Source: Acetohalobium arabaticum DSM 5501 (GTDB lineage: Bacteria > Bacillota > Halanaerobiia > Halobacteroidales > Acetohalobiaceae). From it: 32,000 nucleotides of DNA. Both the position numbers and the translations under genes were made by a program. Positions 1,797 through 26,127 of the stretch are shown here, in pieces. Below the pieces are notes generated by a model. The model saw only the letters and a program-made list of their open reading frames with translations, was not told the origin of the DNA and did no database searches. The stretch lies in assembly GCF_000144695.1 (NCBI RefSeq), contig NC_014378.1:1335833-1367832 (forward strand), in the 5' to 3' direction. Every line of letters starts with the position of its first letter. Positions within the stretch are counted from its first letter, which is position 1.

Positions 1797-3968
1797 CTAC
1801 AGATCATAAATATCGGCAAATTCTACATCTATACGGTCAATAATCTCTTGAGAATTATATCTATCATTGGTCTGAAAACTGCTTCCTTCAGCCAATTTCC
1901 TATCTGACAGTTCTATAATAAATTCACTTCCTACACCTTCCTCACTCTCTACACTTATCTGGCCATTATGGAGTTCAACAATTGATTTTACAATAGATAA
2001 TCCGATTCCAGTTCCTTCATTACTTCTAGTAAACGATTTATCGGCTTGACCAAATCGTTTAAAGATTAGCTCCTGCTTTTCTTGAGAAATACCAATGCCC
2101 GTATCTTTAACGGAAATTAACACTTTGCCTTCTTCAGTATAAATATTAACTGATACTTTATCACCAATATCTGTAAACTTCACAGCATTAGAAAGTAAAT
2201 TTAAGATAACTCGTTCAATATTAAAAGGATCACAGGCTATTATCTTTTCCTCAATTTCAGAATCAAATTCAAATTCCAATTCCTTATATTCAATATGCTC
2301 TGCCACCGAACAAGCAACTTTTCTAACCAGACTTACTATATTACAATTCTCTAATTCAAGTTCAAAAGAACCAGAATCCATCTTAGTAATATCAATTAAA
2401 TTATTGGCTAATCTGAGGAGCCGACGACCATTCTGTTTAATGATTGTTGTATATTTTCCCATCTTACTGCTCTGTTCCGGCTCTAATTTCTTTTGATACA
2501 TCTCTAACATCTGTTGAGCAGAAAAAATCAAATTTAACGGCGTTCTGAATTCATGTGAGATATTAGCAAAAAACTCCATTTTTAGTTTATTGTAGGCTAC
2601 TTTTTCTTTTAATGATTCCACTTCTGTAATATCTATTCCCGTACTTAAAATTTTATTCATCTGACTCTGTTCATCCTTCAGTACAGCATTATGCCATAAA
2701 ATTTTTCTTTCCTCTCCAGATTTAGTGATAATCCTATTCTTATCATTAATTATTTCTCCCTCTAGTAAGGAATTAATTATTTGCTTAGTCTCCGCAGAAT
2801 CTTCTTCTTTTACAAAGTTTTCGGTCCAATCATGTCCTAATACTTCTTCTTCCTTCACTCCTAAAATTTCACAGCCTTTTCTATTGAGTAATTCCACCTT
2901 ACCAGTTCGATCTAAATTAACAACAATTACTTCTGTGATATCAAAATACTTTTGAAGCTTATCTCTTTCTTCTTTAACTTTCTCTTCAGCTTCTTTGCGG
3001 GCAGTAATATCTTCAACAAAACCCAGCAACCGATTTTCAGATGCTTTTACCGCATTGATATTAGCATGAAATTTACTGCCATCCTTTTTAAGAAGCATAA
3101 TTTCAAGACTTAATTCACCAACTTCTAACAGCTGAACTAAATGTCTTTTAGCTTTCTGCCTATCTACAGTCACATCTTCAATAGACATATTCAAAAGTTC
3201 TTCTTTAGAATAACCGCTAAGTTCACAAGCAGCTTCATTTACTTCAATATATTCCCCTCGACTATTAATTACAAATACTCCATAGGGGGCATTATCAATA
3301 TAACTTCTAAACTTTGCTTCACTCTCCTTAAGTGTCTGTTCCGTTTTCTTTCTCTCAGTTATATCACGGTCAAATGATACGAAAATTGGTTCTTCTAAAT
3401 CATCAATATAAGTAGTACTCACCTCAACATCTATAACTTCACCATTCTTACAGCTACATTTGGTTTCAAAACGATCCTGTTCATCTGTCATGATTCTTTC
3501 CATATGATCCTTCACTTCTTCTTTATTTTTAGTAATATCGATATCATCTATAGTCATCTCCAATAATTCTTCCCGTGAATAACCTATCATCTCTTGATAA
3601 CTTTTATTAGCCTCAATAATTTCTCCTTCAGTATTTAAAATTAAAAAACCGTCCATAGTTGTATATAATATTTTATTAAGTTTATCCTTTTCCATAGTTA
3701 ATTCTAAACTTTGTTCTTTCAATCTTTCCCTAAGATAGGATTGATACTTAAATAAAGCTCCAAAGACTAACCCCTGACTTAACAGAAAAGCTGCCACAAT
3801 CCCGCCCTTTAAATGGCCAAAATAAGCTCCTAATCCTACTAAAATCATACAACTAATCCCCTGTAGACTCAGTGACAGATAAGGAGCAATAAAAAATATA
3901 CTTAGACCAAAGATAATTACAAGGTACTTTAATTTACTGATATCTGATTCTACATTCAACTTCTTCAT
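1797..3968 (-). CDS. Membrane-anchored multi-PAS sensor histidine kinase (orphan, no response regulator nearby)
   Basis: 723 aa. N-terminal hydrophobic helices, several PAS-like repeats (GYSREELL, GYSKEELL), H-box FFANISHEFRTPLN, and HATPase N/G boxes (LLSNAVKFT, DTGIGI, GTGIGLSIV). Stop codon is TAG (plus cta 1797-1799). Confidence 0.9.
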   Translation of the reverse strand: MKKLNVESDISKLKYLVIIFGLSIFFIAPYLSLSLQGISCMILVGLGAYFGHLKGGIVAAFLLSQGLVFGALFKYQSYLRERLKEQSLELTMEKDKLNKILYTTMDGFLILNTEGEIIEANKSYQEMIGYSREELLEMTIDDIDITKNKEEVKDHMERIMTDEQDRFETKCSCKNGEVIDVEVSTTYIDDLEEPIFVSFDRDITERKKTEQTLKESEAKFRSYIDNAPYGVFVINSRGEYIEVNEAACELSGYSKEELLNMSIEDVTVDRQKAKRHLVQLLEVGELSLEIMLLKKDGSKFHANINAVKASENRLLGFVEDITARKEAEEKVKEERDKLQKYFDITEVIVVNLDRTGKVELLNRKGCEILGVKEEEVLGHDWTENFVKEEDSAETKQIINSLLEGEIINDKNRIITKSGEERKILWHNAVLKDEQSQMNKILSTGIDITEVESLKEKVAYNKLKMEFFANISHEFRTPLNLIFSAQQMLEMYQKKLEPEQSSKMGKYTTIIKQNGRRLLRLANNLIDITKMDSGSFELELENCNIVSLVRKVACSVAEHIEYKELEFEFDSEIEEKIIACDPFNIERVILNLLSNAVKFTDIGDKVSVNIYTEEGKVLISVKDTGIGISQEKQELIFKRFGQADKSFTRSNEGTGIGLSIVKSIVELHNGQISVESEEGVGSEFIIELSDRKLAEGSSFQTNDRYNSQEIIDRIDVEFADIYDL

Positions 3969-4130
3969 TTATCTGATTATCATTCCCTCATCTAATTTAT
4001 TTTTCATTTAATAACCTTAATATTAAATTTTCTTCTAAATATAACAAATTTCCCGTATTAAAGGTTAAATTAATAATAACAGAAGCATTTAATATCCTAA
4101 ATCTTCTTCAACTATGATAACTTTAATTCT

Positions 4131-4327
4131 GTAGGTACATGGTTTTCGGAGCTCAATACCATTCACCACTAGCAAACTAATCCAATCGATTCTACCTTGC
4201 TAACTTTCTGTCTACGCTTAAAAGATTACGTTACTTAACCTCTCCAAGACTCGATACAGAGCTGGTGGCTAACCTTTACCCTGATGGGATTTACACCCAC
4301 TAGAACATACGTCCTGCCAGGACGCAC
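4131..4327 (-). mobile_element. Mini group II intron relic (element C): 5' GUGCG end plus domain-I-like start, ends in ...GUACCUAC
   Basis: Minus strand reads GUGCGUCCUGGCAGGACGUAUGUUCUAGUGGGUGUAAAUCCCAUCAGGG from 4327. This is the same architecture as the 5' ends of elements A and B (GGUG-NAA-GUCC hairpin about 30 nt in). No domain V or ORF. Its 3' end resembles the ...CCCUAC ends of A and B. Confidence 0.45.
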
Positions 4328-4347
4328 CGCTAAGCCTCTGTTAGGCG
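4328..4347 (-). other. Small bulged hairpin immediately 5' of element C (related copy at 8405-8422)
   Basis: Plus cgctaa-gcctctg-ttaGgcg. The copy at 8405-8422 is gctaac-cctat-gttaTgc. Both have a 6-bp stem with a one-base bulge on the same side. Confidence 0.4.
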
Positions 4348-4389
4348 ATCGTAGGGACCTATTCAAAAGCCAAAATTAATTCAAAACAA

Positions 4390-5403
4390 TTAAGACTTTG
4401 CTTTATCTATAAACCATTTTTTAAATTTTCCATATTCATCAGAATTATAAATTTTACAAGCATCAAAAGTATAAAAATATCCATATCTTGAAAAATAAAT
4501 ACCTGCTTTATTAATAGAAAATTTATTTTGAAAATCAATTAAAGTTAAATATCCAACTAATTGTCGCCACTGTTTAGCAGTCAAGTTTAAATTTTTAGTT
4601 GTCTTTACATCAATTAAAGTATCATTAATTATCAAATCAGCATCTGCTCCATTTACTAATTTCGATCCCTTACCAAATGTAGGGTTCAGGTATACTTTAT
4701 TTGCTAGATTATTTTGTTCTGGAATCGCATGATATAAATTTTTTAAATCCTCAATATATTCTTTTTTGTATTCACCTAAAGTTTCATTGAACTTTCTTCC
4801 TCGGAGATAATCATCTATTTTAGCTAAATCAATAATAGCTTTAATTACTTCTTCATTCATTTTCCCATCTTTTACATATTTATTGTATACTTTTTCTGCA
4901 TTAAAAATTGCATTAAATGTTCTTCTAAATTGCTTTTCAATTTTAGATGAACAGGTTAATTCTCCACCCTCCATAATGTATTTAACTATTTTATCAAAAT
5001 CAATCTTATCATATTCTATATTATCATATATAATAAATCCACCATGATTTTCTACTCCTGGTACTTCTTCGAATCCTTCCATATCTGGTATTACTATACC
5101 CATTTCTTTCAAAAAATTTTGCGGGAATAAAATATCTATATTCGAAATTTTATTAGATAGAAGGTACAATGAAGTATGAGCAATCCAATGAGAATCCTTT
5201 GCATTATCTTTATATTCATGCTTTAAATAAAACCTAAACAAATAATCAAAAGCAGTTCCGATTAACATATAATCTTTACCACTATATGCTTTTGGCGGTT
5301 TTACTTTCATTTCTATATTACTTTGCGAAAAAGAAGGTTTATTAAAAGTTTTATCAATATTTTTTCTTATGTCAGCTTTTTTTATAAAACTAGTTAAAGA
5401 CAT
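4390..5403 (-). CDS. PD-(D/E)XK (RecB/Cas4-like fold) nuclease-family hypothetical protein, 337 aa (ORF-Y)
   Basis: I place the start at ATG 5401-5403, preceded by AAGGGGGTGA 8 nt upstream. The 41 extra codons in the ORF track translate intron domain V RNA. Motifs: GADADLIINDTLIDVKTTK (D...D-x-K) and QWRQLVGY (QxxxY). No Cys cluster. TAA stop. Confidence 0.6.
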   Translation of the reverse strand: MSLTSFIKKADIRKNIDKTFNKPSFSQSNIEMKVKPPKAYSGKDYMLIGTAFDYLFRFYLKHEYKDNAKDSHWIAHTSLYLLSNKISNIDILFPQNFLKEMGIVIPDMEGFEEVPGVENHGGFIIYDNIEYDKIDFDKIVKYIMEGGELTCSSKIEKQFRRTFNAIFNAEKVYNKYVKDGKMNEEVIKAIIDLAKIDDYLRGRKFNETLGEYKKEYIEDLKNLYHAIPEQNNLANKVYLNPTFGKGSKLVNGADADLIINDTLIDVKTTKNLNLTAKQWRQLVGYLTLIDFQNKFSINKAGIYFSRYGYFYTFDACKIYNSDEYGKFKKWFIDKAKS

Positions 5404-5503
5404 TATTTTCTCACCCCCTTCGTGTCCTTTAAAATATTTATTTAGGTCCCTATGTGTAGAGCAGAAAACAAGTTTGATATTATCTCCCCAGCCTCCCCTC
5501 GCC

Positions 5504-6289
5504 AATTCCGTAAGTAGAGTTTTCATCTATACGGCTTTCCATTGCACTTCTTCCTGTAGCCTTCAGTTAATATAGACATTAACTTTTACTCTCTCAGGTA
5601 TAGTTTCCTCCGAAGTTGTTAAGCTTTTACAATGGTGTAGTTAGCCTGTTTGGCATTCACTCACTCTTACCTCCCTTAGAAACTTGTACAAAGTAGAGTT
5701 CCTTTCCTCCAATATGGTTCTGTTGTCCATATCATCATCAGTACTATGAACTCATCCGATTCCCTTTCTGCAGTTTGTACTTTCACCATCACAGTTTATG
5801 TACTCACTCTTTACAGAATTCTCTGTGCAGACTAGGGTCTCACCAGTTCCTGATCATTACTTTCACTACATGTCGCTTCCTATACACCGAGAGGTTCTTC
5901 AATGCTGCTTACTCAGTTCTTCACACCTTCTATAGCCTTCTTCCTTACACGTAAGAATCAGCTCCTCTTTGGTCCCTCTTCGTCGAGGGGGAACTGACGA
6001 TGCAGCAGAATTCGCTTTATGCTACAACATAGCCAGCATACAGACCAATACTGGCTATGGGAGTAACTTATTGAGCAGAAAGATAGTATTATTGCTCTAA
6101 GTTACAAGGCTAGGAGCAAGGATTTATAATCCTGCGGATCTGTAGTTTTAATCGCCACACTTTGGTGACTTTGTCACAGTTACAAAATAGGAATTTCTCC
6201 CTACCAAGTCTGTCAACTACCGAGCTACTGAGTTATTACTCGGATTGGACTTTCACCAACTAGCAATGATAGGATTACCTGGTCGCGCC
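5504..6289 (-). mobile_element. Group II intron derivative B: domains I-V with the RT ORF deleted
   Basis: Collinear similarity to intron A, for example GGAACUGGUGAGACCCUA and GGAUGAGUUCAUAGUA versus GGAACUGGAGAAACCCUA and GGAUGGGUUCAUAGUA. It retains the RT ribosome-binding region (GGGAGGUAAGAGUGAGUGAAUG), then only 9 codons. Domain-V-like AAGCCGUAUAGAUGAAAACUCUACUUACGGAAUU lies at 5504-5537, with mismatches at the base of the helix. The 5' end is near 6288/6289 (GGCGCGACC). The 3' limit is uncertain (see findings). Confidence 0.6.
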
Positions 6290-6293
6290 GTTT

Positions 6294-8318
6294 GTAGGGT
6301 CGAAGTCTGGTGCCTTAACTTAGGTTGATGTTTGTGTTCTCCGTTTGCTCACCCTTTCGTCTGTGAGTGCCACAATATCTCATCCTTATCACATTTCCAA
6401 ACCCCGCCTCATCAAACCGTACGTACGGTTCTCCCGTATACGGCTTTCCTATTTAACTTCTTCTTAAATCTTATAAGTTTAAGCTGGTTTAACTTTCGTT
6501 ATAACGAGCTAATTTATAATTATCAAATAAACCTATCTCATTATATAACCAATCGCTACTCCATCTCTTCCAGCCATATCCCTTTTTACCTCGTTGCTTC
6601 ATGAGATACCTTCTTACTTTATTTTCTACATAATCCTTTACATAAGAAAAGCAGTTCTCTGAATTACCTATTGAAAAGTAATTTACCCAACCTCTTAATA
6701 TAGTGTTTAATTCTGTTATCATTAGCTCAAAGATTCCTGTTGTTCTATGCCTTTTGATTACTTCCTTTATTTTCTGCAACAATGCTGTTCTTTTCTTCAT
6801 TTGAGGTACCGTTAGAACACCCCATTTTCCACTGAAAGTCTTTCGCCTTTTCAAAGTAAATCCTAGAAAACTTATTCTTTCTCCTTTTTCTAGATTTACT
6901 ACTTTAGTCTTTTCCTTGTTTACTTTTACCTTTATTTTATCTAGTTCTTCTTTCAGTCTTTGTATCACTTTTGAAAGTAACCAATTCATACTTGGATGGC
7001 TTGATACTGCTATTACGATATCATCTGCAAAACGAGCATATTCTAGTTCTGTATACTTACCTTTACTTTTTGTTACCTCTTTTGCTCTCTCAAGCATTCT
7101 ATCTACTTCATTTAAATATAAATTAGCAAATAGTGGTGAAATTACTCCACCTTGTGGTACACCTTCTTTTCCACTAGCCTTAAGCATCAGTTTAATCAAA
7201 TGCATTACTTCTTTATCGATTACTCTTTTAGCAATCTTAGCTAACAATATATGATGCTTTACTGTATCGAAGTAGCTCGATAAGTCAAGATCTATCACTT
7301 TTCTTTTTCCACTTACTATTGCTTTTTCTATTTTCTTTACTGCTTGATGAGCTGTTCGTTTTGGTCGATATCCATAAGAACTTTCTTGAAAATCTGCTTC
7401 AAATATTGGCTCTAATATTAACTTTAATGCTCCCTGTACTATTCTATCTTTGATGGTTGGTATACCTAATACCCTTACTTTTCCATTTCCTTTAGGTATC
7501 TCTTGTTTTCGGTTTTCCTGCGGCTTGTATGTCTCATTTACCAGTTCTTCTCTTATCTTTTTAAGATATTTCAATACTCCTATCCCTTCAATATCTTCAA
7601 AAGTTATTCCATCTACACCTGAAGAACCATTCTTCTTTCTTGCAATTCTATAAGCTTTTAGCAACGTATCTAGCTTACATACATGAACATACAATCCCCA
7701 GAATTTATGAGATTCTTCCTTCTTAGATTTAAGATATATTCTCTTCCTCAAGTCTTGTAAACTTATGGGCGCTTTTATCATTTCACCCTTACCTCCTGTC
7801 TTGTCCGAGAAATTATCAATAGTAGGGTCCCTTTGCTATATGAAGTTATATTTACTTCGTAATCTTGGCTACTATGAACCCATCCGCCACCCTCTCCTTT
7901 TTCAATTCATTTCCTGGTTCTCAGTTATAGAATCTACATTTCTCAAGTAATTTTTCACAGGAAGGAATAGGGTTTCTCCAGTTCCAGACATATCCTTATA
8001 TACATACCACCGCTAATACTCCGTTGGTGTACATAAATGTATCAGTCAATTTTCATTCATGCATTCTGTCTTCACTCAGACGTTAAAAGTTCGACCACCA
8101 AATTTACCCCTTTCGAAGCTACTATGCGTTCACTGGTGTTATGGTCTGCATACTTGCTCGATACCCTATAGGTACCTTTGTTAATGGACTTCAATGTCCA
8201 AAGTTTCCTATCAACATTGCCATTCAGCTATAGAGTTTTGACTTTTACTCTAATAGGACTTACACCCATTGGATATGTCCAGCTTCGCTGGACATACAAC
8301 GTCCCTAGGGTTCGCGAC
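6294..8318 (-). mobile_element. Full-length group II intron A with intron-encoded RT/maturase
   Basis: - RT ORF lies in domain IV.
- Canonical domain V AAGCCGUAUACGGGAGAACCGUACGUACGGUUU sits at 6414-6446, directly after the ORF.
- A domain VI-like helix forms between GGGGUUUGG and CCAGACUUC, with a bulged A 7 nt before ...CCCUAC ending at 6294.
- The 5' end is near 8318 (GUCGCGAACC, a non-consensus GUGYG), so boundaries are good to only a few nt. Confidence 0.8.
6489..7781 (-). CDS. Group II intron reverse transcriptase/maturase (no endonuclease domain)
   Basis: 430 aa. RT blocks: GVDGITFEDI, VRVLGIPTIKDRIVQ, SYGYRPKRTAHQA, IDLDLSSYFDTV, GVPQGGVISPLFANLYL, and RFADDIVI (FADD rather than YADD). 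Maturase X motif RGWVNYF. The protein ends soon after, so there is no HNH domain. SD GGAGGTAAGGGTGAA precedes the ATG. Confidence 0.92.
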   Translation of the reverse strand: MIKAPISLQDLRKRIYLKSKKEESHKFWGLYVHVCKLDTLLKAYRIARKKNGSSGVDGITFEDIEGIGVLKYLKKIREELVNETYKPQENRKQEIPKGNGKVRVLGIPTIKDRIVQGALKLILEPIFEADFQESSYGYRPKRTAHQAVKKIEKAIVSGKRKVIDLDLSSYFDTVKHHILLAKIAKRVIDKEVMHLIKLMLKASGKEGVPQGGVISPLFANLYLNEVDRMLERAKEVTKSKGKYTELEYARFADDIVIAVSSHPSMNWLLSKVIQRLKEELDKIKVKVNKEKTKVVNLEKGERISFLGFTLKRRKTFSGKWGVLTVPQMKKRTALLQKIKEVIKRHRTTGIFELMITELNTILRGWVNYFSIGNSENCFSYVKDYVENKVRRYLMKQRGKKGYGWKRWSSDWLYNEIGLFDNYKLARYNES

Positions 8319-8435: not shown

Positions 8436-9572
8436 TTAAGTTTTATTTAAATCTCCAATTGAAATGACCATATCTTTATTAATTAATAATTTGTTATTAG
8501 CTATGCTCTCTAAACTTTTTACTTTAGGAATCTTTTTATTATTATAGTGAGTATAATATTTAATTTCACCAATTTCTTTATTTGAGTTATCAAACTCAAA
8601 ATCATATATCCCTTCATCATTACAACAAGTAAAAAATAATCTTTCTCTATTTTTGCTTACAAAACAATCCACAAAATTTTGTATAAAAGAAGGAGCATAA
8701 GCTACAAAATGTTTGTCTTCAGATTTAATATAGCCATATAGTGGTTCCATAACATATGAATACCAAATCAAATCATCGATTTCTAATTTTTTATGCAATT
8801 CATTTTCATATTTTGGTTTACCATTATAGTATTTCAAATTTACAAATCCATTTCTTTTCTTACCATTCATCTCATGCCACTTATAATGAGCAAACTTTTT
8901 ATCTTCTAAGTCTACAATTCTCTTTTTAAGAAATCCATACTTTTTAGCTGTTTTTTCAATAGCTTTACCAATTTGAGTATTAAGTTTAAAGTTTGTTTTA
9001 ACTGTAGGAGAATATGAACTTGATAATGAATTATAATCTTGATACTCTTCTACTTTGTATAATTTATCCTTTTTCATACTATATATATTTAATTTTCTAA
9101 TCCAAGAACCGGTACCAGAACCATGTTCAATAAAAACAATTTCTTCTTCTCCATCATTATCAATATCCTCAACATTTAAACTCTCTATTAGAAATGAAGA
9201 CTTTTTCTGCCAAACAGAAGTATAATTTTCACCCAATTTTCTTAAAATGCAAATTTTATGATCATATCCATTATTACTTTTATTAACTTGAGTAAATACT
9301 GCAATAAACTCATTTAAATTGATATTTTTATACGGTACAGCTTTTAAAATTTTAGATGATAATATAGAATATGCTATATTTTTTGCTTCTTTATCCTTAA
9401 TTTGTGAATTGCAAATGAGATTTTTATTGAATAAAAAAAGCCTTAATTTATGTTTACATTTATTTAGTTTCCCATAGATTTTACCTAAATTAGATACAAT
9501 AAAATCCAAAATTATTCCTAAGATATTAAAGCACCTCCACAAATTAGTCTTTCGCATAACTTTAATCTTCAC
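8436..9572 (-). CDS. Hypothetical protein with N-terminal hydrophobic anchor and one FG-GAP/VCBS-like loop (ORF-X)
   Basis: Long open frame of 378 aa with a GTG start at 9572 (alternative ATG at 9557). Hydrophobic segment LWRCFNILGIILDFIVSNL. VEDIDNDGEEEIVFIEHGSG resembles a calcium-binding FG-GAP loop. I recognise no other family. Lys/Asn-rich, even more AT-rich than its neighbours. Confidence 0.5.
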   Translation of the reverse strand: MKIKVMRKTNLWRCFNILGIILDFIVSNLGKIYGKLNKCKHKLRLFLFNKNLICNSQIKDKEAKNIAYSILSSKILKAVPYKNINLNEFIAVFTQVNKSNNGYDHKICILRKLGENYTSVWQKKSSFLIESLNVEDIDNDGEEEIVFIEHGSGTGSWIRKLNIYSMKKDKLYKVEEYQDYNSLSSSYSPTVKTNFKLNTQIGKAIEKTAKKYGFLKKRIVDLEDKKFAHYKWHEMNGKKRNGFVNLKYYNGKPKYENELHKKLEIDDLIWYSYVMEPLYGYIKSEDKHFVAYAPSFIQNFVDCFVSKNRERLFFTCCNDEGIYDFEFDNSNKEIGEIKYYTHYNNKKIPKVKSLESIANNKLLINKDMVISIGDLNKT

Positions 9573-17865: not shown

Positions 17866-17899
17866 AAAAAATAAAAAGAGGGCTAAATGCCCCCTTTTT
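17866..17899 (-). terminator. Terminator at the end of the methyltransferase operon
   Basis: On the minus strand, GGGGGC-auuua-GCCCUC hairpin followed by UUUUUAUUUUUU. Confidence 0.75.
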
Positions 17900-17904
17900 A
17901 ACAA

Positions 17905-18702
17905 TTACACATCCAATTCTCCATTTTGAACAGCCTGAATATAATTACTACAGTGTTTATCATTTCCTAATAAGGTATTTGCAGTAGTTATTAAAGCCAT
18001 AATCTTTGGATCTAATGGATCTATAATAGCACTATCCATGCCTTTAGCCATGGCCAAAGTTACAAAGGTTCTATTAAGCAATTTTCTCTGCGGCAGTCCA
18101 TGAGAAATATTACTTAATCCACAAGTAATATGTACATCTTCATACTCACTCGTAATTTCATCGATTGCCTCAAGAATATGCTGTCCTACCTCTTGGTCGG
18201 TTCCAATAGGCTGAATAATCGGATCAACATAAATATCATCCATATCCATTCCAGCATCAGTTAAATCTTCAATTAACTTCTTTCCCACTCTAGTTCTATC
18301 TTCAATACCATCAGGCATTCCACCATCATCCATTACCAAGGCAACCACTTGAGCATCATGTTTTTGAATTATTTCTAGTGTCTCGTTAAATCTTTCTTCT
18401 TCAGCAGTAATAGAATTGACTAAAGCCTTTCCATCATGAGCAGCTAAGGCTCTATCCATAGCTTTAGGATCAGGAGTATCTATACATAATGGTACATCAA
18501 CTACCTCTTGTACCGTATTTACTAACCATTCTAATGCTTCTTGCTCTTCATCAATTAGAGTTCCGCAGTTAACATCAATATAATCTGCTCCTGCTTCTTC
18601 CTGTTTTTTAGCTAAATCTTGAATAAACTCTGTATCTCTATCCTTAACAGCCGGCTCAATTCCCTCTCTACTTGTATTAATTAATTCACCAACAATTATC
18701 AT
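17905..18702 (-). CDS. Methylcorrinoid:tetrahydrofolate methyltransferase (pterin-binding, MeTr/AcsE/MtgA-like)
   Basis: 265 aa. It is collinear, as I recall it, with Moorella MeTr: IIGE-IN start, D-NCG, PLCIDT, NSI, GLSN-S, NRTF, D-AI-D. SD GGAGGG. Confidence 0.85.
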   Translation of the reverse strand: MIIVGELINTSREGIEPAVKDRDTEFIQDLAKKQEEAGADYIDVNCGTLIDEEQEALEWLVNTVQEVVDVPLCIDTPDPKAMDRALAAHDGKALVNSITAEEERFNETLEIIQKHDAQVVALVMDDGGMPDGIEDRTRVGKKLIEDLTDAGMDMDDIYVDPIIQPIGTDQEVGQHILEAIDEITSEYEDVHITCGLSNISHGLPQRKLLNRTFVTLAMAKGMDSAIIDPLDPKIMALITTANTLLGNDKHCSNYIQAVQNGELDV

Positions 18703-18802: not shown

Positions 18803-19447
18803 TTAATCTGCTAATTCTTTAATTTTATTAACTGCTTCATTTGCATCTTCTGCATAACCATCTGCTCCGATTTTTTCTGCAAATCTTTTTGTAACCGGTC
18901 CACCACCAACTACTAAGTCAAACTCATCACGTAAGTTTTCTTCCTCTAAAATCTCTAATAATTCTTCATTTGCTCCCATAGTAGTAGTTAATAATGCACT
19001 AGTTCCTATAATATCAGCATCAACTTCTTTAGCCTTAGTAATAAAATCTTCAATAGGAACATCTGTTCCTAAATCAAAAACTTCAATTCCATTTGCCTCT
19101 AAAATTGAAGCTACAATTCCTTTTCCAATATCATGAACATCACCTTGTACTGTACCTAAAACAATCTTGATACTTTCTCCAGCTGCTGCATCTTCTTTTG
19201 CTGCAGCTTCTTGTAAAATTCCACTAGCTTTTTTCATTGCTTCAGCACAGCCCATTAGCTGAGGTAAGAATAACTCACCTCTATCAAATAATCTACCAAC
19301 TTCCTTAATTCCTGCAGTATAACCTTTCTCTATCATCTTTAACGGATCAATTCCTTCATCAAGTGCAGTTTGAGCAATCTCCTCAGCTTTATCTACGTCA
19401 GCATCACAAATAGCTTCAGCCGCTTTTTCAAAAAGTTCATCACTCAT
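18803..19447 (-). CDS. mtbC: Methylamine-specific corrinoid protein (B12-binding domain)
   Basis: 214 aa. N-terminal helical cap plus Rossmann B12 domain with DxHxxG motif (GDVHDIGKGIV). SD GGAGG 8 nt upstream. It starts 22 nt after the MtbB stop. Confidence 0.85.
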   Translation of the reverse strand: MSDELFEKAAEAICDADVDKAEEIAQTALDEGIDPLKMIEKGYTAGIKEVGRLFDRGELFLPQLMGCAEAMKKASGILQEAAAKEDAAAGESIKIVLGTVQGDVHDIGKGIVASILEANGIEVFDLGTDVPIEDFITKAKEVDADIIGTSALLTTTMGANEELLEILEEENLRDEFDLVVGGGPVTKRFAEKIGADGYAEDANEAVNKIKELAD

Positions 19448-19468: not shown

Positions 19469-20845
19469 TTAAGATGTTTTATTTTTAAACTTCTCTACAG
19501 AATTAATTCTAATATCAAGCAATTCAGAAATGTTAAACTTAGCTTCTACGCCTTTAGCCTCTCCAGCTTCAGGCTGAACTCGCCCGATATTCAATTCATT
19601 TCGTACCTCATCCATAATCACAGGATCAGTCAATTCTCCTACTTCAACCCCTAATTTATCAGCAACATATTCTTTCGCTTCATCTAGACGCATATTTTCG
19701 GACATTTGCATGCGCGCTACCAGGTCTCCGGCAGTACGTACTCCGCCCATGCCCGAAGCTAATGCGTGACTGATGACCATTCCATTAGGGTCACCTACAC
19801 CTACCTACAACCCATCTTGTTTACCAATCTCAGCCAGAGCAGCAGAAGCTCTACTTAAAGAATCTGCTGGCGGAGTTTCAACTATTGGTACACCGCCTAC
19901 ACCCATACCTACATTTGCATGTACAGGAATATCAGCCGCTTCAGCACAAGCTTTCATCATAGTTACAGTTCTACCTATATTCCAAGGAATAGTCTCACTA
20001 CTATTGATGTTAACTACCGGGCCAAAGACATCAACTCCAGCCTCTTCAGCTAACTTCACCTGCTCATGCGGATATAATCCTGCTAAACCAACTCCATTAT
20101 ACTCTAAATCTCCATGCATTCCTAAAACAAATTCTCCAGCCATTCCCATCTCAATACTGATATTAGGATACTTTTCCTTTAATTCTTCCGTTGCTTTCAA
20201 TGTAGCCAAGAAATCAGGTTCCCCTGCTGAACCAGTTGTATCAAAATTAATTCCATCTGCTCCAGCTTCATACATCTTACTTCCTACAAAAACCATATCT
20301 TTAATTGCATGTTCCATCATACCTTCATAAGCTTCTTGCGCTTCTTTAACTTTCCCCTTTGGCAACAATTCTGCTGGATTAGGAAATGCCCCATCTGGTT
20401 GACTGTATAATGATAGATTAGGCATTGCTCCGTAATATAGAGGTAAGACCGTACTCAACAGAGCCTGTTCCATCTCTATTTGCTCTTCAGCTACAATTGG
20501 CTTTACGGGCTTAAAACTGTAATCAATATGAGCCAATTCTGCAGTATCAGAGCAAAAAACTCTTTCATAAATCTGCAAATCAGGAATTCTACCGATTGAA
20601 ACAGCCAAACGCTTTAATTTTACTGATCCTTCATCAAAAGTTAAAACTAACTCATTTCCCGTTTCAACACTTACAAATTTACTCGGTCTTGTATAAATAT
20701 CTGTTAATTTTTCTATTTCCTCCTCAGGAAGGGAATCAACCTCTGCTCGGTCAACAGCATCTTCAATTCCTCTTTCTATATCTGCTCTAATTTCATCTTC
20801 AGTCATTTCTATTGTCGAGCCGTCTCCTAGCCTTGTCTGTACCAT
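19469..20845 (-). CDS. mtbB: Dimethylamine:corrinoid methyltransferase with in-frame UAG (predicted pyrrolysine) at 19805-19807
   Basis: - Track ORFs 19805..20866 and 19469..19780 are in the same frame.
- They are separated only by TAG plus 8 open codons (VGVGDPNG).
- The joined product from ATG 20843-20845 (AAGGAG SD 8 nt upstream) is 458 codons with UAG at codon 347.
- Remembered MtbB motifs lie on both sides: HIDYSFKPVKP, GMGVGG before; GDLVARM, AKEYVADKLGV, LLDIRINS after. Confidence 0.85.
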
Positions 20846-21335
20846 ATTTTTCACTCCTTTATTCAATTAAATTTTAATTTAAATTCAGTCCCACACTTAA
20901 CCAGAAATTAAATCTTCCATTGTCAGATTTTACTTATCACCTCCTTTTCATATTCTTTGCTATTTTGTTAAAATATTAATAATTTTATAAAGATTCTGAT
21001 GTCTCTGTAAAGGATAGATATATCGCATCTCTTTTCAAAAATTAAAATTATAAAAATTATATTAAATGAAGATAATGGTATTTGATAGATTACAATAGGT
21101 ATGAAAGGTAGAAATAAATGATATATTATTCCTTAATAAACTTATATCATTGTATTAGGTTGTATTATAATATTTCCATATTAACTATTTAATCCCTTTT
21201 ATTCTTATATTGTAATTAGTTATAACATTCATAAGTTATAAATTATTTAGACAATATAAAAGCTTGTCCATCTCTTAATCTCCTATTTATATAAGCAAAT
21301 AATTATATGATTTCAATAAAATATTAGTTATTTTT

Positions 21336-23497: not shown

Positions 23498-23869
23498 CTA
23501 GAAATTATTGGTTTTGGGAAAGGTAACTTTTAACAAGCCATGTGTAAAGTTGGCTTCAGCATTATTATTATCAACATTTGTCGGCAGCGACATCTTACGA
23601 AAAAAGGCCCCTTTTCTTCGTTCCTGATGCAGAAAGTTCATCTGATTTTGAACTGCAGAATCAATATTTGCTTCAATAAAGATACTTTCTTGGGATAATT
23701 CAACATTCAAACTCTCCAGATTAACACCAGGCAGTTCATAAATATAATGTACCGCTCTATCATCTTCTACTACATCTACCTGAGGAGAAACATAATTCGG
23801 CTGATTATAGTTAGCAATTCCCGTTGAATGATTCCCCTGTCTATTCTGGAGATTAAAATTATTAGCCAT
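23498..23869 (-). CDS. Hsp20/alpha-crystallin family small heat-shock protein
   Basis: 123 aa. Contains PQVDVVEDDRAVHYIYELPGV...HGLLKVTFPK. SD AAGGAGGG. Stop codon is TAG (plus cta 23498-23500). Confidence 0.8.
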   Translation of the reverse strand: MANNFNLQNRQGNHSTGIANYNQPNYVSPQVDVVEDDRAVHYIYELPGVNLESLNVELSQESIFIEANIDSAVQNQMNFLHQERRKGAFFRKMSLPTNVDNNNAEANFTHGLLKVTFPKTNNF

Positions 23870-25222: not shown

Positions 25223-26101
25223 TTAATCTATAACTTTACACCAGAGGTTCATATCCTCTAATTTACCACCAATATGACAATTTTTAATCATCTTTCCTGT
25301 GTATTCATAACCGGCTTGCTTAAATACTTTATTCATGCTATAAGAAATTGATCGAGCAATAGTATAAAGGCTTTGATAATTCCGCTCAGCTAATTCCTCT
25401 TCTAATTCCATAAGTAGATAACTAGCAGCCCCTTGACCTCTTGCTTCAGGAGCAGTAGCAAAGTCAGTCATTTCAGCATTCTTTAACTCAGGATCTGTAT
25501 CTGCAGAAGCTGTAGCCACTAAATTATTATTATTGTCGTAAATCAGACCGTAAACTAAATTTTCCTGCATAGTTTTATACAGATATTCTGGATCAAAAAT
25601 TGGATTAGGATAAGAATCAAATACCTGCTTATATAATTGAGCCATTTCATCTAGATCAGAAGATTCAGCAAGCTTAAAGTTCCAGCCGTCATTTAGCTCC
25701 GGCCTTTTATTTTTTGGTTCAAGATTAGTTATCTTTTCTATAATTTCTTCTGCTTTTTCTTTATTAAAATGGAGGCTGCGTTTTTCATTCACATAATAAC
25801 TCATTATTATAGCATCTTCAGTACGATAAAAATTTGGAATTTCAGCTTCAGATTTAAATCCTAATCTAATAAATTTATTCTTATCAGAAGTCTTTGCTTT
25901 GACCCAAATTTTACCATAATTCTTCCGCTTAGCTTCTGATTTTAATCTTTTACCTAAACTGAATACATTCTTTCCCCAATAAGACTTAACAGTAATTCTT
26001 TGATTGAAGTCTGAATACTTAACCTTAGCTGCATAATTTCGCCCTCTAATAATCTTAAAATTCCCATGCTCATTCTCCAATTTTAATGAAGAAATACTCA
26101 T
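25223..26101 (-). CDS. ablB: Beta-lysine N6-acetyltransferase (GNAT, AblB-type)
   Basis: 292 aa. C-terminal GNAT with acetyl-CoA motif ARGQGAASYLL. It sits 26 nt downstream of a lysine 2,3-aminomutase gene, the canonical ablA-ablB arrangement. Confidence 0.7.
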   Translation of the reverse strand: MSISSLKLENEHGNFKIIRGRNYAAKVKYSDFNQRITVKSYWGKNVFSLGKRLKSEAKRKNYGKIWVKAKTSDKNKFIRLGFKSEAEIPNFYRTEDAIIMSYYVNEKRSLHFNKEKAEEIIEKITNLEPKNKRPELNDGWNFKLAESSDLDEMAQLYKQVFDSYPNPIFDPEYLYKTMQENLVYGLIYDNNNNLVATASADTDPELKNAEMTDFATAPEARGQGAASYLLMELEEELAERNYQSLYTIARSISYSMNKVFKQAGYEYTGKMIKNCHIGGKLEDMNLWCKVID

Positions 26102-26127
26102 TTTGAAAGTAATTACCTCCTTAATTC

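Follow-up and report, generated by a model that had tools for sequence, protein, structure and literature searches.

Introduction

The dimethylamine methyltransferases MtbB1-3 of Methanosarcina barkeri, whose genes contain amber codons that are read through (Paul, Ferguson & Krzycki 2000, as cited in PMC7593587), are close described counterparts of the gene considered here, mtbB of the bacterium Acetohalobium arabaticum DSM 5501. This gene lies in a stretch of 32,000 nucleotides of contig NC_014378.1 (positions 1,335,833 to 1,367,832), which we call the window and to which all coordinates below refer unless another contig is named. Twelve proteins encoded in the window are identical to database entries of A. 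arabaticum DSM 5501 (ADL127xx / WP_0132782xx), a species of the Halobacteroidaceae (Halanaerobiales, Bacillota). It very probably encodes a 458-residue dimethylamine:corrinoid methyltransferase in which residue 347 is pyrrolysine (Pyl), specified by an in-frame UAG. The likeness to the M. barkeri proteins consists of membership of the family defined by PF09505 and TIGR02368, one UAG at the homologous column and an adjacent gene for the cognate corrinoid protein. The A. arabaticum copy differs in being about 50% identical to an archaeal-type sequence, in its bacterial host and in its downstream partner, which is a pterin-binding methyltransferase of the tetrahydrofolate type and not a coenzyme M methylase. 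The archaeal host decodes pyrrolysine constitutively.

A second useful comparison is the MtgB-MtgC-MtgA set of Desulfitobacterium hafniense, a corrinoid system that passes a methyl group to tetrahydrofolate and whose MtgB belongs to the MttB superfamily but has no Pyl. Both systems combine a substrate methyltransferase, a corrinoid protein and a pterin-binding methyltransferase, but in A. arabaticum the first component is the Pyl-dependent MtbB.

The pyrrolysine genes of A. arabaticum itself already have a published history. A 2010 review described all five pyl genes in this organism, with pylSn preceding pylSc and a homologue of mttB interspersed among them (PMC2933860). In 2013 the pyrrolysine transfer RNA (tRNA-Pyl, in Table 1) and pylS were reported from NC_014378.1, and the genome was used to define mtbB clusters and an RNA structure downstream of the UAG, from which the Rfam family RF02509 (PYLIS_2) was derived (PMC3639795). 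As later papers summarise the work of Prat et al. in 2012, the pylTSBCD genes are expressed and UAG is read as pyrrolysine only during growth on trimethylamine (PMC11467909, PMC4153887, PMC8211752, PMC3941956), and the study lists the mono-, di- and trimethylamine methyltransferases encoded in the genome (PMC11467909, PMC4153887, PMC5209957). The mtbB gene of the window is part of that published system, sharing both its organism and its decoding machinery. The gene is already known, as is the use of pyrrolysine by this bacterium, on which publications date from 2010-2012 onwards, and neither is a new prediction. The abstract of the 2012 study is said to report that mass spectrometry showed pyrrolysine residues in two methylamine methyltransferases, of which this MtbB may be one, and the reviews that cite the study give no protein-level mass spectrometric detail for MtbB.

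The mtbB gene and its family

The mtbB gene occupies positions 19469..20845 of the minus strand of the window, which has a GC content of 34%, and consists of 458 codons, including one in-frame UAG, followed by a TAA stop. A Shine-Dalgarno sequence, AGGAG, is read directly from the DNA at 20854..20858 (minus strand), 8 nucleotides upstream of the ATG at 20845. From this ATG the frame stays open for 346 codons until it meets TAG at 19805-19807. Eight bridging codons follow at 19781..19804 (minus strand; GTA GGT GTA GGT GAC CCT AAT GGA, encoding VGVGDPNG), which can be translated by read-through only, and the frame then continues through the ATG at 19780 to the TAA at 19471-19469 (minus strand). 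The segment downstream of the UAG (19469..19804, minus strand) thereby comprises 111 codons and the stop. All of the elements given in the original prediction were found at the coordinates stated there. The predicted residues around the UAG in the read-through protein are ...EIGKQDGL-O-VGVGDPNGMVISH...

The read-through product, with X at the UAG, matches the Pfam family Dimeth_Pyl (PF09505) with an E-value of 3.6e-233 and 774.6 bits, against a cutoff of 25, and the match spans residues 3-456 of 458 and profile positions 4-463 of 463, taking in the segment downstream of the UAG. It also scores 523.8 bits against the NCBIfam equivalog TIGR02368, whose cutoff is 369.1. The family models are thus matched end to end and above their curated cutoffs, in agreement with the earlier call of a full-length dimethylamine methyltransferase made from the sequence without database searches. 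Structural comparison added little to this picture. A sequence search of the PDB returned no relative of MtbB with a solved structure, and an AlphaFold2 model built from an alignment of 12 sequences reached a mean predicted local distance difference test score (pLDDT) of 66.9 and a predicted template modelling score of 0.73, with residues 347-370 below a pLDDT of 50. The alignment behind this model is shallow past the UAG because the database homologues are truncated there. A Foldseek search of the PDB with the model gave nothing significant, the best E-value being 0.017 and template modelling scores not exceeding 0.27, all to generic TIM-barrel enzymes.

Conservation of the UAG codon

To place the UAG in an evolutionary context, we drew on a genome scan that used one genome per species and in which at least 584 stretches were confirmed as mtbB, the best 80 loci being kept. 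The column of the UAG was read in a sample of 101 checks from 84 loci, representing 97 distinct gene sequences. Every one of the 101 checks has TAG at the aligned column, and none has a sense codon there (0/101). A strict motif search accounts for 85 mtbB copies, every one with TAG at the column, and in each of the 16 loci that this motif missed the one in-frame TAG lies at the aligned position. The taxa concerned include Halanaerobiales, Desulfobacterales, Dehalococcoidia, Spirochaetota and Syntrophomonadaceae, among others. The UAG of the window at 19805..19807 (minus strand), codon 347, therefore coincides with the conserved pyrrolysine position, as had been anticipated in the original prediction, which gave archaeal MtbB as about 467 residues long with its pyrrolysine near residue 356. 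An archaeal-type copy in the sample (L003) agrees well with those figures, having 468 codons with TAG as codon 356 in the context DGI*IGVGDP, and it adjoins mttB and corrinoid protein genes. An HMM match over residues 3-456 of 458, combined with the same single TAG in 101 checks, places the arrangement of an mtbB split by a UAG far beyond chance.

UAG-containing mtbB is distributed widely among bacteria, given the at least 584 confirmed stretches and the fact that the best 80 are all bacterial and come from at least six phyla, and many genomes of the scan hold two or three mtbB copies per locus. This updates a statement of 2014 that mtbB is almost exclusive to the Methanosarcinales (PMC3941956).

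Protein databases record this gene in a distorted form. Among the best 120 database homologues all but a handful stop at 341-350 residues, which is the same truncation point. Two full-length matches of 468 residues (P0011 and P0034, corresponding to loci L003-L006) have glutamine at the pyrrolysine column, because TAG was translated there under an alternative genetic code; they were considered as non-Pyl glutamine variants of MtbB and rejected, as their DNA has TAG at that position. More generally, ‘full-length’ MtbB and MttB entries with glutamine at the pyrrolysine position in public protein collections can be mistaken for non-Pyl variants.

It had also been expected that automated annotation would split the A. 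arabaticum gene or call it a pseudogene. This was borne out for gene calls from Logan and metagenome assemblies, which give products of 346 and 103 residues, but not for GenBank. There ADL12786.1 is the corrinoid protein on one side of mtbB and ADL12788.1 the nuclease on its other side, so that a single accession lies between them (ADL12787.1, by elimination; UniProt D9QQJ6) and mtbB is not split. Exact look-up of the 346-residue, 353-residue and full-length forms, the last with X or K at position 347, found none of them in NCBI sources.

Translation downstream of the UAG

Whether the region beyond the UAG is translated can be judged from how it has evolved. In comparisons with four orthologues of the same length, the ratio of non-synonymous to synonymous substitution rates (dN/dS) is 0.11-0.14 for the 111 codons that follow the UAG, their amino-acid identity is 79-88% and their frame is undisrupted; the part before the UAG has a dN/dS of 0.04-0.08 where it could be computed. 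The segment after the UAG is, on these comparisons of sequences, under purifying selection, which bears out the earlier view that the 3' part of the gene is not a decayed fragment.

The eight bridging codons are especially informative. Across 98 sequences the residues Gly349, Gly351 and Asp352 never vary at the amino-acid level, and the third positions of the bridging Val, Gly and Pro codons vary freely, with entropies of 1.5-1.9 bits. Invariant residues with free third positions are a protein-coding signature, and so these codons are translated, which requires read-through of the UAG. Taken together with the dN/dS values, this signature excludes, on the present evidence, both a decaying pseudogene and two separately initiated polypeptides.

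The pyrrolysine machinery

The genes for pyrrolysine synthesis and charging had been said to lie outside the window, and this is the case: the window contains no tRNA by ARAGORN, no PylS by tblastn with the catalytic domain of pyrrolysyl-tRNA synthetase, and no pyl family among the scanned open reading frames (ORFs). A lysine 2,3-aminomutase-like gene of the radical S-adenosylmethionine type at 26128-27333 was considered as pylB and rejected, as it is an AblA equivalog paired with ablB.

Elsewhere in the genome the machinery is complete. A tRNA-Pyl(cta) with CUA anticodon was found by ARAGORN on two A. arabaticum contigs (L087:297-368 and L088:26-97), the second of which comes from sequencing run SRR059979, the same run that yielded a contig (L002) 100% identical to the window. 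The proteins of the pyl locus all exceed their NCBIfam equivalog cutoffs: PylSn (TIGR03912, 115.7 bits against 51.15), PylSc (TIGR02367, 303 against 178.15), PylB (TIGR03910, 474 against 348.2), PylC (TIGR03909, 409 against 248.3) and PylD (TIGR03911, 262.1 against 150.05). The PylSc corresponds to a database protein (P0142) named pyrrolysine--tRNA(Pyl) ligase large subunit [Acetohalobium arabaticum], which was the third-best match when the PylSc of Natroniella sulfidigena served as query. The locus also holds an mttB with an in-frame stop and a corrinoid protein gene, and the gene order on L087 agrees exactly with that described in 2010 (PMC2933860). A genome lacking pyl genes would have undone the proposal that the UAG encodes pyrrolysine; instead pylT(CUA), pylSn, pylSc, pylB, pylC and pylD are all present.

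At other loci the two sets of genes are often neighbours: of 60 loci scanned, 19 have tRNA-Pyl at most 10 kb from mtbB, and PylS was detected in 18 loci. The closest relative recovered, N. sulfidigena (L007; 92% identity over the best aligned segment), has pylT, pylSn, pylSc, pylB, pylC and pylD directly upstream of its mtbB-mtbC-methyltransferase genes. In N. sulfidigena the cassette thus runs straight into the mtbB operon; in A. arabaticum the cassette is grouped with mttB-mttC, at a different place from the mtbB operon.

A further gene recurs in these loci. An ATPase of about 655 residues resembling hydantoinases and oxoprolinases is encoded between pylB and pylC in A. arabaticum (L087:5164-7128), and a gene of this kind adjoins mtbB or mttC in six other loci (L007:7903-9873, L009, L010, L054, L056 and L003), including deltaproteobacterial and archaeal-type contigs. 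Its NCBIfam hits include no model of the RamA type.

The mtbB operon

The mtbB gene heads a three-gene operon that continues with genes for a corrinoid protein and a pterin-binding methyltransferase and is closed by a terminator. The second gene (18803..19447, minus strand; ADL12786.1) starts 21 nucleotides after the mtbB stop and encodes a corrinoid protein, putatively of the MtbC type, with the Pfam domains B12-binding_2 and B12-binding and a sequence identical to its database entry. It scores above the cutoff of TIGR02370 (pyl_corrinoid; 224.6 bits against 215.3) and below that of the MtbC equivalog (212.8 against 350). After a further 100 nucleotides comes the third gene (17905..18702, minus strand; ADL12785.1), whose product has the Pfam domain Pterin_bind, is predicted to be of the methyl-corrinoid:tetrahydrofolate type, is likewise identical to its entry and scores 349.8 bits against NCBIfam NF005719, with a cutoff of 259. 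A terminator-like hairpin with a T-run (17872..17900, minus strand), consisting of a 12-pair stem and then TTTTTTAT, starts 5 nucleotides after the stop of this last gene. The operon is flanked by genes for a nuclease and a cell-wall amidase, and a promoter scan upstream of mtbB gave matches no commoner than in shuffled sequence.

Proposed decoding and alternative readings

These observations are brought together in the following scheme. When the cassette is expressed, PylB, PylC and PylD would make pyrrolysine from lysine, PylSn and PylSc would charge it onto tRNA-Pyl(CUA), and the charged tRNA would compete with release factor 1 at the UAG of mtbB to give the full-length enzyme. When the cassette is off, as on pyruvate, the UAG would terminate translation and leave a 346-residue fragment devoid of the VGVGDP motif and the C-terminal 111 residues. 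With dimethylamine as the methyl donor, MtbB would methylate the Co(I) corrinoid protein whose gene follows directly, a transfer that we infer from homology, and the pterin-binding methyltransferase encoded by the third gene would pass the methyl group to tetrahydrofolate and so into acetogenesis. The insertion of pyrrolysine at codon 347, the substrate specificity, the trimethylamine-dependent regulation and the tetrahydrofolate acceptor are features that we infer or take from the literature. The analysis itself shows the structure of the gene, its family, the UAG column, the selection past the UAG, the layout of the operon, the identity of the organism and its possession of the pyl cassette. 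Wherever the original prediction that the UAG is decoded as pyrrolysine could be put to a test in silico, it was supported.

Several points weigh against this scheme. The present analysis holds no direct protein evidence for pyrrolysine at residue 347 of MtbB. The mediocre model of the protein, with its pLDDT of 66.9 and low values near the pyrrolysine site, leaves the predicted placement of the active site without structural support. No biochemical characterisation of any bacterial MtbB was found in the retrievable literature, and so the specificity for dimethylamine rests on homology. No gene for a RamA-type reductive activase was seen in the window. Finally, TAG serves as an ordinary stop in two of 23 other ORFs of the window, so that UAG is ambiguous in this organism; the tally of stops in window ORFs comprises 20 TAA as a whole and 2 TGA, the figure of 2/23 for TAG being exclusive of the two mtbB fragments. 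Bacteria that decode pyrrolysine have been found to keep TAG as a common stop and to regulate the cassette instead (PMC4153887), and the two TAG stops are consistent with this published picture.

The two ordinary genes that end in TAG encode a PAS histidine kinase (stop at 1797-1799, minus strand) and an Hsp20 protein (stop at 23498-23500, minus strand). At times when the Pyl cassette is on, read-through would lengthen the products of both.

Other explanations of the split gene have been considered alongside decoding as pyrrolysine. One is that the 346-residue product is itself functional when methylamines are absent, so that one gene would give rise to two products. UAG is reported to terminate in pyruvate-grown cells (PMC11467909, PMC8211752), and the truncated product would be made if the gene were transcribed under those conditions, but it would lack the invariant VGVGDP motif as well as the strongly conserved C-terminal segment, and we found no evidence that such a fragment is stable or active; we regard this as highly improbable.

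A similar view can be taken of the proposal that ribosomes stop at the UAG and restart at the ATG at 19780, which has a Shine-Dalgarno-like GGTGA 10 nucleotides upstream, giving two polypeptides of 346 and 103 residues. An ATG occupies this position in 95 of 98 sequences and is preceded by a GGNGA motif. The motif, however, is accounted for by Gly-Asp codons, and the family's best-conserved motif is encoded by the eight codons that separate the UAG from this ATG, codons with a coding signature that requires read-through. Moreover, pyrrolysine is known to be the catalytic residue of methylamine methyltransferases (PMC9842639). Restart is in our estimate exceedingly unlikely.

Read-through might instead insert a canonical amino acid, by way of a near-cognate or other suppressor tRNA. 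Low-level near-cognate read-through of UAG in bacteria is general knowledge and nothing more specific favours this explanation here, whereas the genome has a dedicated tRNA(CUA) together with genes for the synthesis and charging of pyrrolysine, and mtbB adjoins pylT or pylS in many genomes. The complete lack of sense codons at the column in the mtbB checks (0/101) argues that no canonical residue can substitute for pyrrolysine, and we give this alternative hardly any credence. That a nonsense mutation inactivated mtbB and left the downstream ORF as a decaying remnant would fit the standard bacterial code, which stops at codon 347, and the fragments of 346 and 103 residues given by automated callers, but is practically inconceivable in view of the same TAG at the same column in 101/101 checks from several phyla, a downstream dN/dS of 0.11-0.14 in an undisrupted frame, a full-length match above the equivalog cutoff and a genome that encodes the machinery for decoding UAG.

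An RNA hairpin downstream of the UAG

The stretch that begins at the UAG of mtbB (19708..19807, minus strand) matches the Rfam family RF02509 (PYLIS_2, ‘Pyrrolysine insertion sequence mtbB’) with 75.9 bits, against a gathering threshold of 36, over model positions 1-100 of 100. As the match lies in conserved coding sequence, its helices were tested on an alignment of 98 distinct mtbB sequences, mostly bacterial, which is free of gaps. The two helices fared differently. Helix 1 (model positions 7-38) failed the test of formation and conservation, with 69.4% of cells paired; three of its pairs (12-33, 14-31 and 17-27) fail to form in 61-83 of the 98 sequences, and the window sequence has four non-standard pairs in this helix. 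For helix 2 (model positions 73-92) 87.3% of cells are paired.

Helix 2 is the core of a longer hairpin of 10 base pairs with a loop of 4 nucleotides in the messenger RNA (mRNA), which lies at 19714..19737 (minus strand), 70-93 nucleotides after the U of the UAG, in alignment columns 71-94. It differs from the Rfam model by the additional pairs 71-94, 72-93 and 78-87, which lie outside it. In the extended form 88.4% of cells are paired, as against 27-46% when the partners are slid by one to three columns, and the covariation score is 0.21, as against 0.05-0.10 in the slid controls. The pairs 72-93 and 75-90, which involve codon third positions throughout, swap between CG, GC, AU and UA. In the window sequence nine of the ten pairs form, and the local fold has an energy of -13.1 kcal/mol.

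The same region stands out in its synonymous sites. Over the 96 conserved four-fold codon columns of the whole of mtbB the mean third-position entropy is 1.75 +/- 0.32 bits, and only five of these columns fall below 0.9 bits, namely residues 364, 367, 372, 373 (GGA in 95/97) and 375 (CTG in 92/96). These frozen sites at residues 364-375 (19721..19756, minus strand) form the only such stretch in mtbB.

The hairpin begins 70 nucleotides past the UAG, which is too far to touch a ribosome that is decoding it, and pyrrolysine insertion is held to need no cis element (PMC8211752). That the hairpin and the frozen sites, 50-93 nucleotides past the UAG, make up a cis-acting RNA element that is functional and peculiar to mtbB, mainly that of bacteria, is a possibility that we put forward tentatively and consider rather doubtful. 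Whatever novelty the locus still has lies in this hairpin, and since Rfam already includes the core of the hairpin, as helix 2 of PYLIS_2, only a function for it would be new.

Other genes in the window

Three further features of the window are recorded here. At 25223-27333 (minus strand) lie ablB, for a beta-lysine N-acetyltransferase (TIGR03827, 297 bits against 205.1), and ablA (TIGR03820, 610.5 against 525.4). The product of ablA is lysine 2,3-aminomutase, and the pair makes the osmolyte N-epsilon-acetyl-beta-lysine, best known from halophilic methanogens; here it is found in a halophilic bacterium.

About 8 kb from the mtbB operon, at 28530-29681 (plus strand), is a gene for an ammonia/methylamine permease of the Rh50 type, with an E-value of 1e-54 to solved Rh50 structures. 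For the Rh50 permease of A. arabaticum, horizontal transfer with a link to methylotrophic methanogens has already been published (PMC5209957).

Signals of group II introns extend over 4102-8271 (minus strand). They comprise an ORF for a reverse transcriptase/maturase at 6489-7781, Rfam matches to intron domains D1-D4 at 8134-8271, 6130-6262 and 4102-4293, and a domain V/VI match at 6361-6448. This pattern suggests more than one intron copy, of which at least one probably lacks an ORF of its own. Two ORFs of 378 residues flank the intron region (4390-5526 and 8436-9572, both minus strand); they are unrelated to each other and have no Pfam or NCBIfam match.

Conclusions

A. arabaticum is the textbook bacterium with a genetic code expanded by pyrrolysine, and descriptions of its genes for methylamine methyltransferases, mtbB among them, are over ten years old. 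Even so, standard gene callers still split or truncate mtbB genes that contain a UAG, and some pipelines mistranslate the codon as glutamine. If the hairpin past the UAG does act in cis, it may raise the efficiency of pyrrolysine insertion, or it may couple expression of the downstream corrinoid protein and methyltransferase to read-through, for example by countering transcriptional polarity at a terminating UAG; such a role would run against the current view that the decoding of pyrrolysine needs no signal in the mRNA.

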